Made by a program: the position numbers and the translations under genes. The notes under the pieces were generated by a model. The model did not search any database, had not been told where the DNA came from, and saw only the letters and a list, made by a program, of their open reading frames with translations. DNA of 64,000 nucleotides from Steroidobacteraceae bacterium (GTDB lineage: Bacteria; Pseudomonadota; Gammaproteobacteria; Steroidobacterales; Steroidobacteraceae): the NCBI GenBank assembly GCA_047602045.1, contig JASGIC010000001.1, positions 2,456,300 to 2,520,299 of the forward strand, given 5' to 3'. Below are positions 34,147 to 40,034 of this stretch, piece after piece (position 1 is the stretch's first letter; the number at the start of each line of letters is the position of its first letter).

Positions 34147-34479
34147 TCAGCGCTTGCCGAACAAACGTTCCAGTTCGAGACGCGCAGCTTGCGCTGCTGA
34201 AGTGTCGGCCGGTTTGTGGGCGCCGGCGCGTGGTTGAAAATAGTCGCAGAAATTAGCGCGTTCCTTGTCGAACACTTCTTCCGCGATCGGCTCGCGGCAT
34301 TTCTTCGCAACGCGCTCGTCGTAATCCACGCACAGCTTGCAGACGTGCAGTTCGGCACGGCACTGGCGGCATTCGTCACGCCGGCCGAGCGGCAGGCTCA
34401 GATGAGCGAGCGAAGCGCCGCACTTCCAGCACACCAGCGCAGGCGCGGCCGGAGCGCCGCCATTCCCGCCAGCGCTCAC
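34147..34479 (-). CDS. small Cys-rich zinc-ribbon protein
   Basis: 110 aa with four CxxC pairs or partners (CWKC, CRQC, CKLC, ...C...C). The GTG start overlaps the stop of the upstream giant uvrA-like gene (GTGA). Confidence 0.68.
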   Translation of the reverse strand: MSAGGNGGAPAAPALVCWKCGASLAHLSLPLGRRDECRQCRAELHVCKLCVDYDERVAKKCREPIAEEVFDKERANFCDYFQPRAGAHKPADTSAAQAARLELERLFGKR

Positions 34480-37400: not shown

Positions 37401-40034
37401 GGTGGTGGGCTCATCGAACATCAGCAGCTTGCCCTGCGCCGGCGCTTCAGCCGGAGTGCCCTTGCCGTTGGCAGCCTGTTTGCTGCGACGGGCGCTGGCG
37501 CGCTTCTGCAGCTGCGCTTCGGCCAGGTGGCCGGCCAGCTTCAGGCGCTGCGCCTCGCCGCCCGACAGCGTCGGCACCGGCTGACCCAGCTTCACGTAGT
37601 CCAGGCCCACGTCGGACAGCGGCTGCAGTCGGCCCAGCACCGCGGGCTGATCGGCGAAGAAGGCCAGCGCCTCGCTCACCGTCATCTCCAGCACATCGGC
37701 GATGCTGGCACGCGCCCCGGTGGCACCCCTGAGCTTCACCTGCAGTGTCTCGTTGCGATAGCGCCGGCCGTTGCATTCGCCGCAGCGCAGATACACGTCG
37801 GAGAGGAACTGCATCTCCACGTGCTCGAAGCCATTGCCACCGCACACCGGGCAGCGGCCGGTGCCGGAGTTGGTGCTGAAGGTGCCGGCGGTGTAGTTGC
37901 GCAGCCTGGCGTCGTCGGTGGCGGCAAACAGTGCGCGCACCTCGTCGAAGGCGCCCACATAGCTGGCGGGATTGGAGCGCGTGGTGCGGCCGATGGGACT
38001 CTGATCGATCAGCACCACATCATCGACGCGCTCGGCGCCGATCAGGCGGCGATGCGCCAGCGGCGCTTCGGTGGAGCGGCCATGCGCCTTCAGCAGCGCC
38101 GGGTACAGCACGTCCTGCACCAGCGTCGATTTGCCGGAACCCGAAACGCCGGTGATGCACACCAGCCGCTTCAGCGGAATGCTGACGTCGACGTTCTTCA
38201 GGTTATGCGCAGTCACGCCTTCGAGCCGGATCTCTCCGGCGTTGGTGGGCGCATGCTCCTGCGCGCGCAGGCGCGGCAGCTGCTTGCGGCCCGACAGCCA
38301 GGCGCCGGTCAGCGATTCGGGATGCGCAGCTACGCGCGCTGGTGAATCGAAGCACAGGATGCGGCCGCCGCGTTCGCCGGCACCGGGGCCCAGATCCAGG
38401 ATGCGGTCGGCTTCCACCATGATCTGCGGATCGTGTTCGACCACCACCAGTGAGTTGCCGGCATCGCGCAGCTTCTGCATGACGCGCACCACGCGACCCA
38501 TGTCGCGCGGATGCAGGCCGATGGAGGGTTCGTCCAGCACGAACAGCGTGTTCACCAGCGAGGTGCCCAGCGCCGTCGTCAGGTTGATGCGCTGGACTTC
38601 GCCGCCGGACAGTGTGCGCGACTGGCGATCCAGCGTCAGATAGCCCAGGCCCACCTCGCACAGATAGGAGAGCCGGGCGCGCAGCTCGGCCAGCACCAGG
38701 TCGGCTGCCTCATCCAGCGGGCCCGCCAGCTTCAGGGTGTCGATGACCTGACGGCATTCGTCAATGGGCAGCAGCGCCAGTTCATGCACATTGCGGCCAT
38801 GCGGCGCCTGCGAATCCCCGCCCAACCGCCACAGCAGCGCGTCCGGCTTCAGGCGCGCGCCCTTGCAGGCCGGGCATTCCGTGTAGCTGCGGTAGCGCGA
38901 CAGCAGCACGCGGATGTGCATCTTGTAGGCCTTGGTCTCCAGCCACGCAAAGAAACGCTGCGCGCCGTACCAGACCTTCTTCTCCCAGGCGCCTTCGCCC
39001 TCGATGGCCCAGCGGCGCACTTCGGGCATTAGTTCGCGCCAGGGCACGTCGGTGGGAATGCCGCGCTTCTTCGCGAAGCGCATCAGGTCATCCTGGCACT
39101 CTTTATAGGAACCGGTCTGGAAGGGCTTGATGGCGCCGCCCGCCAGGCTCTTGCTCTCGTCCGGGATCACCAGGCCATAGTCGATCCCGATGACGCGACC
39201 GAAGCCGCGGCAGGTTTCGCAGGCGCCCACCGGTGAGTTGAACGAGAACAGACCGGGGCTGGCGTCCTGGTAGTGCAGATCGCAGTCTGCGCAGTGCAGA
39301 TCGCTGGAGAAGCGCCACACGCTGCGCTCCTCACCGGCGTCATCGAGCGCATGGATGCTGAGCCGGCCGCGACCGGCGCGCAGCGCGCCTTCCAGCGCTT
39401 CGCTCAACCGGCCGCTCTCGGCATTGCCGACGCGCAGGCGATCCTGGATCACCACCAGCTCGCCGCTGCTCTCGCGCAGCAGGCGCGTGTAGCCCGAGCG
39501 CTCCAGTTCGGCCTTCATCTGCGCCACGGTGAGGCCCTTGGGCACATTCACGGTGAAGCAGATCTGCAGGCGCGGATCACCGCCGGCGGCGGCGCGGGTG
39601 CGCAGGGTCGCGGCAATGCTGTGCGCATCGTCGCGCTGCACGCGCTGACCACACTGGCGGCAGTACAGCGTGGCGGCGCGCGCGTACAGCAGCTTCAGGT
39701 GATCGTTGATCTCGGTCATCGTGCCCACGGTGGAGCGCGAGGTGCGCACCGGATTCACCTGGTCGATGGCGATGGCCGGCAGGATGCCTTCGATGGCGTC
39801 CACCTGCGGCTTGTCCATGCGATCCAGGAACTGGCGCGCGTAGGGCGAAAAGGTCTCCACGTAGCGGCGCTGGCCTTCGGCGTACAGCGTGTCGAACACC
39901 AGCGAGCTCTTGCCGCTGCCGGAAACGCCGGTGACGACCACCAGTTCGCCGAGCGGAATGTCGACGTCCAGGTTCTTCAGGTTGTGCTGGCGGGCACCGC
40001 GGATGGCGATGCAATGACTGGCCTTGTCGGTCAT
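34476..40034 (-). CDS. tandem-duplicated UvrA-like ABC ATPase (two UvrA units in one 1852-aa chain)
   Basis: Walker A GVSGSGKS occurs four times, LSGGE four times and LDEP/FDEP..GLH four times. There are two sets of UvrA zinc modules. The start was trimmed to the ATG at 40034 ([21 protein letters not shown]). The unit boundary is near nt 37076-37170. Confidence 0.9.

Follow-up and report, generated by a model that had tools for sequence, protein, structure and literature searches.

Why a bacterium should encode two UvrA units in one polypeptide, and whether that polypeptide works together with the small cysteine-rich protein encoded behind it, are questions raised by a 64,000-nucleotide stretch of DNA from Steroidobacteraceae bacterium (Gammaproteobacteria; assembly GCA_047602045.1, contig JASGIC010000001.1, positions 2,456,300 to 2,520,299), referred to here as the window and numbered from its first letter. 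The minus strand of the window carries a giant uvrA gene followed by a small gene for a protein with eight cysteines (the 8-Cys protein). As judged from its sequence, the giant gene belongs to an old, conserved family of tandem UvrA proteins whose two units are complementary in their accessory domains. We favor, with moderate confidence, a role for its product as an auxiliary single-chain UvrA-like sensor that is linked to nucleotide excision repair (NER) and lies outside the SOS regulon, with the two units forming an intramolecular pseudo-dimer, a canonical UvrA encoded elsewhere, and the tie to the 8-Cys protein being secondary.

One reading frame with two UvrA units

34476-40034, minus strand: giant tandem uvrA coding sequence (open reading frame list, translation, NCBIfam UvrA models, full-length orthologues)
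37170-40034, minus strand: N-terminal UvrA unit, residues 1-955, with a full class-I-like layout including the insertion domain
37080-37169, minus strand: Ala/Arg-rich inter-unit linker, approximately residues 956-985, poorly conserved
34479-37079, minus strand: C-terminal UvrA unit, residues 986-1852, with the UvrB-binding domain kept and the insertion domain absent

Positions 34476-40034 of the minus strand form an uninterrupted open reading frame (ORF) of 1852 amino acids plus stop, whose translation contains two UvrA units. The ATG start is at 40034 and the stop codon at 34476-34478. A TTG at 40109 provides an alternative upstream start; because alignments with homologues begin at residue 1 when the ATG is used, the 1852-residue frame was taken as the giant gene. 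A motif scan located four copies each of GVSGSGKS (residues 36, 629, 1016 and 1535), LSGGE (residues 475, 823, 1382 and 1728), DEPxxGLH (residues 501, 874, 1408 and 1762) and (V/I)EH(D/N) (residues 532, 905, 1439 and 1793), and all four nucleotide-binding sites are canonical in Walker A, signature, Walker B and H-loop. The scan also detected 12 CxxC motifs, corresponding to six zinc modules, three per unit. Each unit thus has the intact motifs in two ATP-binding cassette (ABC) domains and the three zinc modules of a class I UvrA. An earlier note, made from the letters of the window alone, had described a single-chain double UvrA with four Walker A/signature/Walker B sets, three zinc modules per unit, a linker of about 30 residues and non-equivalent halves, and motif and domain mapping bear this description out.

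The unusual length of the frame is the sole point in favor of an assembly error or frameshift that fused two ordinary uvrA genes. Continuity of the frame, which the earlier note had proposed to check, was seen in over 60 independent assemblies, among them finished replicons of Ralstonia, Burkholderia and Cupriavidus, so the ORF is not an assembly artefact. Moreover, neither half is an ordinary uvrA, as both score below the cut-off of the NCBIfam model NF001503. The comparative data have already refuted this explanation, and we give it practically no weight. G+C content is approximately 67% across the window, and composition is unbroken at the giant-gene locus.

The two units carry complementary accessory domains

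38850-39182, minus strand: N-unit insertion domain, approximately residues 285-395, inside the CETC272...CPAC387 zinc module
39282-39662, minus strand: N-unit zinc module 1 (CRQC125...CADC248), with a diverged domain inside it where the UvrB-binding domain would lie
36351-36692, minus strand: C-unit UvrB/Mfd-binding domain, residues 1115-1228 (Pfam UvrA_inter)
36123-36239, minus strand: C-unit zinc module 2 (CTDC1266...CSTC1301), in which a 31-residue acidic loop replaces the insertion domain
37455-37541, minus strand: variable basic insert (AQLQKRAS...) between signature 2 and Walker B2 of the N unit (sequence)

The insertion domain is confined to the N unit, which aligns end to end with residues 26-977 of Mycobacterium tuberculosis UvrA (3zqj), insertion domain included. 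The C unit aligns with Thermotoga maritima UvrA (9gxk) in two blocks, 25-305 and 427-959, and the skipped segment, 306-426, is exactly the insertion domain. The Pfam family UvrA_DNA-bind (PF17755) matches N-unit residues 285-358 only (E = 1.4e-10 and 4.9e-11), and the domain has a mean identity of 0.74 across 61 orthologues. As the earlier note had counted, 111 residues separate CETC272 from CPAC387 in the N unit, as compared with 31 between CTDC1266 and CSTC1301 in the C unit.

The UvrB-binding domain has the opposite distribution. Pfam UvrA_inter (PF17760) is above its cut-off only at C-unit residues 1115-1228 (E = 1.4e-25 and 1e-20). Taken alone, the zinc-module-1 segment of the C unit matches UvrB-binding domains of solved UvrAs, among them the isolated Escherichia coli domain crystallized with Mfd (4dfc_B, E = 1.3e-7) and the Geobacillus stearothermophilus domain crystallized with UvrB (3fpn_A, E = 6e-4), in line with the canonical look that had been ascribed to it. 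The corresponding N-unit segment gave no significant match in the Protein Data Bank (PDB; best UvrA E = 0.6) and scored 17.7 bits against UvrA_inter, below the cut-off of 23.3. It had been called shortened; with 119 residues between the CxxC pairs, versus 133 in the C unit, it is indeed 14 residues shorter, but its main feature is divergence rather than deletion. By domain content, then, the units are complementary: the N unit has an insertion domain and a degenerate UvrB-binding domain, and the C unit shows the reverse. Neither unit contains both accessory domains, as each would in a class I protein.

Two further segments vary among orthologues. The extra basic insert reported for the N unit is present, but it is a variable and poorly conserved loop (mean identity 0.33, 40% gaps), with 30-57 residues between signature 2 and Walker B2 in different orthologues; it was rejected as a functional feature on account of its variable length and poor conservation. 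The linker has a mean identity of 0.19, and the distance from Walker B2 to Walker A3 ranges from 135 to 180 residues.

A conserved family of tandem UvrA paralogues

Similar proteins occur in betaproteobacteria. A tblastn search of a plasmid collection returned 159 records that match at least 80% of the giant-protein query. The best matches are single-piece and collinear, with approximately 58% identity over query residues ~4-1812, and they lie on Ralstonia solanacearum megaplasmids, on Burkholderia replicons (Burkholderia multivorans among them) and on the second chromosome (CHR2) of Cupriavidus metallidurans CH34. These orthologues are annotated as "excinuclease ABC subunit UvrA", in one record as "Excinuclease ABC subunit A, dimeric form". 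In the genome paper of C. metallidurans (PMC2864759), a complete NER set is described and uvrA2 (Rmet_4549), on CHR2, is given as an additional, second excinuclease gene. CHR2 yielded no UvrA match other than the tandem gene, and Rmet_4549 is therefore probably that gene.

The asymmetry is a property of the family. In a comparison of 68 ORFs from Steroidobacteraceae metagenome-assembled genomes (MAGs) and three betaproteobacteria, 60 keep both the asymmetry and all four motif sets, the other eight being truncated or incomplete; the span from Walker A1 to signature 1 is 432-540 residues in the orthologues, and that from Walker A3 to signature 3 is 359-393. The motif sets, the zinc modules and the single insertion and UvrB/Mfd-binding domains are thus shared by two classes of Proteobacteria. 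The two-unit ORF, the collinear similarity and the shared asymmetry all place the giant protein among the tandem UvrA paralogues of Proteobacteria, already annotated in Ralstonia, Burkholderia and Cupriavidus, and the ~58%-identical annotated orthologues uphold the suggestion of the earlier note that it belongs with tandem paralogues lacking an assigned function. Burkholderiaceae proteins share the two units, the long N-unit and short C-unit spans, the four motif sets and, by Pfam, an N-unit insertion domain and a UvrB-binding domain that scores best in the C unit. They differ in their length (1945-1974 residues, versus 1852 here) and in having no 8-Cys gene downstream. In Ralstonia the N-unit homologue of the UvrB-binding domain is more recognizable than here, with two UvrA_inter stretches.

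The giant protein is therefore not new in itself; its complementary domain loss is a useful feature that has apparently been little discussed so far. The literature that was found concerns class I and class II/IIa UvrAs (PMC9328131; PMC5128194; PMC3167621), together with the note in the CH34 genome paper. The label "class III", which the earlier note attaches to tandem-duplicated UvrAs, could not be verified in this literature. Pseudomonas fluorescens PFLU3600, a UvrA homologue with a mitomycin C phenotype, was considered as a tandem protein and rejected, as it has 839 residues.

Paralogue or housekeeping UvrA

If the giant protein were the only UvrA of the organism, it would be a single-chain housekeeping NER sensor. 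Such a role would agree with the presence of one UvrB-binding domain and one insertion domain, and at full length the protein exceeds the cut-offs of both NCBIfam UvrA equivalog models. In addition, a second, canonical uvrA in this genome is a presumption, as the analysis covered the 64 kb of the window. The NF001503 result is explained by the summing of two half scores, because against a cut-off of 1147 bits the N unit alone reaches 968.5 bits and the C unit 1014, whereas E. coli UvrA scores 1628.6. Similarly, solved class I UvrAs give 745-797 bits with each half but 1078-1290 bits with E. coli UvrA, so that the halves diverge from class I far more than class I UvrAs of different phyla diverge from one another. 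The orthologue in C. metallidurans is reported as a second copy next to a complete NER set, and those in Ralstonia and Burkholderia sit on secondary replicons.

In Chlamydiae a double-length UvrA is the only UvrA known. That protein is likewise a tandem UvrA in one chain, but the chlamydial model (NF001885, 1809 positions) gives the giant protein 1058.7 bits against a cut-off of 3054, which places it in a different tandem lineage. Taken together, these comparisons argue that the giant protein is a paralogue, and we regard a housekeeping role as improbable. Within the conserved ATPase cores, the N unit versus the C unit and either unit versus E. coli UvrA are all approximately 46-55% identical, and orthologue pairs (N-N and C-C) are 65-73% identical. 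The halves resemble each other no more than they resemble E. coli UvrA, so the tandem arrangement is ancient; a recent internal duplication was rejected for the same reason.

Compared with the class I proteins of E. coli, G. stearothermophilus, T. maritima and M. tuberculosis, the giant protein has the same ABC core and the same three zinc modules. It differs in that two units are fused instead of forming a homodimer, so that a pseudo-dimer has one recognizable copy of each accessory domain, the N unit providing the insertion domain and the C unit the UvrB-binding domain. Further differences are cores ~50% identical to E. coli UvrA, halves that fall short of NF001503, and the lack of a LexA box. 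Class II and IIa UvrAs (Deinococcus radiodurans UvrA2, DrrC, Ecm16) are paralogues with uncertain roles beyond the NER sensor (PMC9328131; PMC5128194), and the giant protein resembles them in probably being additional to that sensor. However, the UvrB-binding domain is missing from class II proteins, and in class IIa zinc finger 1 is missing too, whereas both units here keep zinc module 1 with a domain inside it, which in the C unit is recognizable as a UvrB-binding domain. Both halves also score lower against the class II structures 2vf7 and 7sh1 than against class I structures.

Regulation of the giant gene

The earlier note had reported no uvrB or uvrC nearby and no CTGT-N8-ACAG box upstream of the giant gene, and both absences were confirmed. 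No uvrB or uvrC homologue was found in the 64-kb window or in approximately 90 related loci, and positions 40035-40500, upstream of the giant gene, contain no match to the box with up to one mismatch. LexA control of the giant gene was rejected for lack of this box.

A perfect LexA-type box, CTGTACGGATATACAG, is present at 27265-27280, 8 nt upstream of a PA0069-family radical SAM gene (27288-28358, plus strand; NF033668, 494 bits versus a cut-off of 360). This gene is probably SOS-regulated; PA0069 belongs to the LexA regulon of Pseudomonas aeruginosa. The position of the box directly before the gene suggests that the organism uses the CTGT-N8-ACAG sequence, and since the box is missing upstream of the tandem uvrA, the latter is probably not SOS-regulated. 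A promoter scan revealed no promoter-like site, and terminator-like sites were not above the shuffled expectation; a hairpin after the small gene was not significant (z = -1.4).

The 8-Cys protein

34147-34479, minus strand: gene for the 8-Cys protein, 110 amino acids from a GTG start (ORF, homologues, alignment)
34476-34479, minus strand: GTGA overlap of the stop codon of the giant gene and the start of the small gene (sequence)

The overlapping GTGA start, the 110-residue ORF and the eight cysteines that had been noted were all found again in the sequence, and conservation in relatives shows the small ORF to be a real gene. Shortly before its GTG start is a G-rich stretch, GGGGGGAT. In relatives the usual start is an ATG six codons before the first cysteine; this codon is absent here, which leaves as the start the overlapping GTG or else another GTG, one codon ahead of Cys17. 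Invariant residues in a 60-sequence alignment are Cys 17, 20, 37, 40, 47, 50, 61 and 78, together with His45.

A first search returned 1678 homologues (clusters at 90% identity), most of them approximately 100 residues long and 65-80% identical, and an exhaustive profile search returned 1442 clusters at 50% identity, 652 of them with E ≤ 1e-10. The exact match comes from a Steroidobacteraceae MAG, where it is listed as a hypothetical protein; the plasmid collection held no match. Many clusters comprise proteins of 120-170 residues with extra C-terminal LxxLFG repeats, and the copy in the window has a single C-terminal LxxLFG helix. In P0121, P0160, P0217, P0471, P0489 and other family members, two or three A(K/R)xxLExLFG helices are separated by low-complexity linkers, and this repeat resembles a short docking motif.

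The protein has no match in Pfam, NCBIfam, the PDB or BFVD. An AlphaFold2 model reached a mean confidence score (pLDDT) of 62 at first and 81 with a deeper alignment, and a Foldseek search with the latter model gave nothing significant in the PDB or BFVD. In a profile search of PDB sequences, the first four cysteines aligned with the zinc ribbon of ribosomal protein bL32 at a non-significant E value of 0.16. The 8-Cys protein accordingly represents a large family absent from Pfam and NCBIfam and, on present evidence, one not specifically tied to UvrA.

Pairing of the giant gene with the 8-Cys gene

Whether the two genes constitute a functional unit was judged from their co-occurrence, which the earlier note had proposed to survey. 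The sample consisted of the best 80 species-representative genome loci that carry the small gene. A giant uvrA lies upstream on the same strand in 79 of these 80 Steroidobacteraceae loci. Between the uvrA stop and the conserved ATG there are mostly 2-40 nt; the genes overlap by 4-11 nt in a few loci, and approximately 10 loci have larger gaps of roughly 0.6 to 6.7 kb. Flanking synteny is lower: the convergent downstream ORF is kept in 60 of the 80 loci, a GGDEF-EAL gene in 39 and a radical SAM gene in 28. Extra DNA separates the two genes in L005 (7426-7815, a 129-aa ORF), L008, L053, L060 and L066; these inserts in a few relatives consist of the 129-aa ORF or of 1.5-6.7 kb, and they indicate that the operon is not inviolable.

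Outside Steroidobacteraceae the pairing was not found. In Burkholderia, Ralstonia and Cupriavidus, the DNA within 6 kb of the tandem uvrA contains no gene of the 8-Cys family. Conversely, an Alteromonadaceae genome, Oceanicoccus sagamiensis and Shewanella colwelliana have the 8-Cys gene among unrelated neighbors with no UvrA within 8 kb, and in several uncultured gammaproteobacteria it likewise lies among unrelated genes without UvrA. A recurrent alternative context has the order glyoxalase, 8-Cys gene, DksA/TraR-type gene (L076, 9579-10951; L094 and L095, 6552-7924; and L098, a Steroidobacteraceae MAG, 7501-8378). The gene for a glyoxalase/bleomycin-resistance fold is directly upstream in all four loci, and the DksA/TraR-type zinc-finger gene is directly downstream in three, being approximately 5 kb away in L098. 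One protein from the glyoxalase context, P0489, is 73% identical to the 8-Cys protein of the window, and its gene looks, from the sequence, like the same gene placed elsewhere.

These observations bear on the proposal of the earlier note that the giant UvrA and the 8-Cys protein form a dedicated surveillance or drug-displacement module, distinct from UvrABC repair and independent of UvrB and UvrC in the manner of DrrC and Ecm16. The tight operon in one lineage stood up, with its short spacings and occasional overlaps and with a pairing that is better conserved than the flanking genes. The lack of uvrB, uvrC and a LexA box nearby is also consistent with such a module, as is the finding that Ecm16 works without NER proteins (PMC9328131). 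The generality of the pairing did not stand up, as the small gene is missing next to the betaproteobacterial orthologues and at least six other contexts contain an 8-Cys gene but no UvrA, among them that of the closely similar P0489. Furthermore, class II is defined by the loss of the UvrB-binding domain, and a scoring domain is kept here, which in sequence terms argues against UvrB independence; the neighborhood also lacks a biosynthetic cluster or drug-related genes. With the pairing confined to one family and the 8-Cys gene found elsewhere without UvrA, the two-component proposal is weakly supported, and we consider it unlikely. Our conclusion is that the uvrA-8-Cys operon is a lineage-specific arrangement and not a conserved two-component system. 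A functional tie between the two proteins within Steroidobacteraceae is possible.

Proposed mechanism

In the established structure of the UvrA dimer, both accessory domains belong to signature domain I, and one copy lies at either end of the DNA-binding groove. On this model, the N and C units of the giant protein would pack intramolecularly like a head-to-head UvrA2 dimer, producing an ATP-driven sensor of DNA distortion. The N-unit insertion domain would clamp DNA at one end of the groove and a single dock for UvrB or Mfd would sit at the other, so that such a polar sensor would bring in a single UvrB with a fixed orientation. Linked to NER, it would serve as an auxiliary sensor alongside a putative canonical UvrA whose gene lies elsewhere in the genome. 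Retention of a scoring UvrB-binding domain makes involvement in NER or transcription-coupled repair appear likelier than a UvrB-independent role of the class II type. The 8-Cys protein would be a separately distributed putative metal-binding protein with a zinc-ribbon-like N-terminal Cys4 site and a second Cys4 site. In Steroidobacteraceae its gene is presumably co-transcribed with the giant gene, and in the window the two are probably translationally coupled.

Several points weigh against an auxiliary NER-linked sensor with only a secondary tie to the 8-Cys protein. Binding of UvrB or Mfd by the C unit is predicted from sequence similarity at the level of the domain. The segments at the UvrB-binding-domain position are equally conserved in the two units (orthologue identity 0.54 for N and 0.57 for C), so that the diverged N-unit domain is itself under selection. 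Conservation of the gene pair above the level of flanking synteny hints at a lineage-specific functional tie. A full-text literature search found no open-access study of, and no experiment on, any tandem UvrA, and, with 64 kb of the genome covered, the separate canonical uvrA is presumed.

In a bolder reading, the co-translated 8-Cys protein of Steroidobacteraceae would be a lineage-specific accessory subunit, for example a metal or redox switch that binds the diverged N-unit domain of an obligately polar, single-chain sensor loading one UvrB or docking one Mfd. We consider this a long shot; if true, it would describe a two-protein damage-sensing machine without a described counterpart.

UvrA is usually a symmetric homodimer that docks two UvrB molecules, and how this symmetry is broken at a lesion is still debated. 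The tandem family offers a natural covalent pseudo-dimer in which the insertion domain and the recognizable UvrB/Mfd-binding domain lie on opposite units, and hence a ready-made asymmetric variant. It should help to dissect the contribution of each accessory-domain copy, and the four ATPase sites can be mutated individually. As the family is present in the genetically tractable genera Ralstonia, Cupriavidus and Burkholderia, the uncultured host is not needed for such experiments.

Neighboring genes and defense-system matches

PADLOC models for two components of the MADS anti-phage defense system matched the giant protein, mad3 with E = 1.9e-149 (496 bits) and mad8 with E = 2.8e-63 (212 bits), which would be expected if it were part of a MADS-like system. 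The MADS authors built their own hidden Markov models (HMMs) from HHpred alignments to PDB homologues; if the PADLOC mad3 and mad8 models derive from these HMMs, the matches probably reflect the UvrA-like ABC ATPase fold. A MADS locus would be expected to combine mad6, mad7 and mad8 with methyltransferase genes; here no methyltransferase or other mad gene is near and the neighbors are unrelated, and we therefore read the matches as generic UvrA-like similarity. The locus, in addition, is syntenic chromosomal DNA across the whole family. A defense role is thus very improbable. In genome scans, PADLOC mad3 and mad8 may pick up any UvrA.

The neighbors of the giant gene include a GGDEF-EAL gene, radical SAM genes and HrpB. 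Convergent with the small gene is a 600-aa ORF (32320-34122, plus strand) that is kept in 60 of the 80 related loci; it received no family assignment, a weak SPOR hint being the only indication. Divergent from uvrA is ORF 40481-41563 (plus strand), whose first ~31 residues match the end of an EAL domain (E = 1.4e-8) and whose remaining body is unrelated. The true start seems to lie downstream of this EAL remnant, and homologues lie upstream of uvrA in only 7 of the 80 loci. Farther away, a second perfect LexA-type box, CTGTATATTCGCACAG, is located at 58170-58185, between the divergent ORFs 57793-58233 (minus strand) and 58237-59619 (plus strand). Neither ORF matches Pfam or NCBIfam, and the two could be an SOS-regulated pair.

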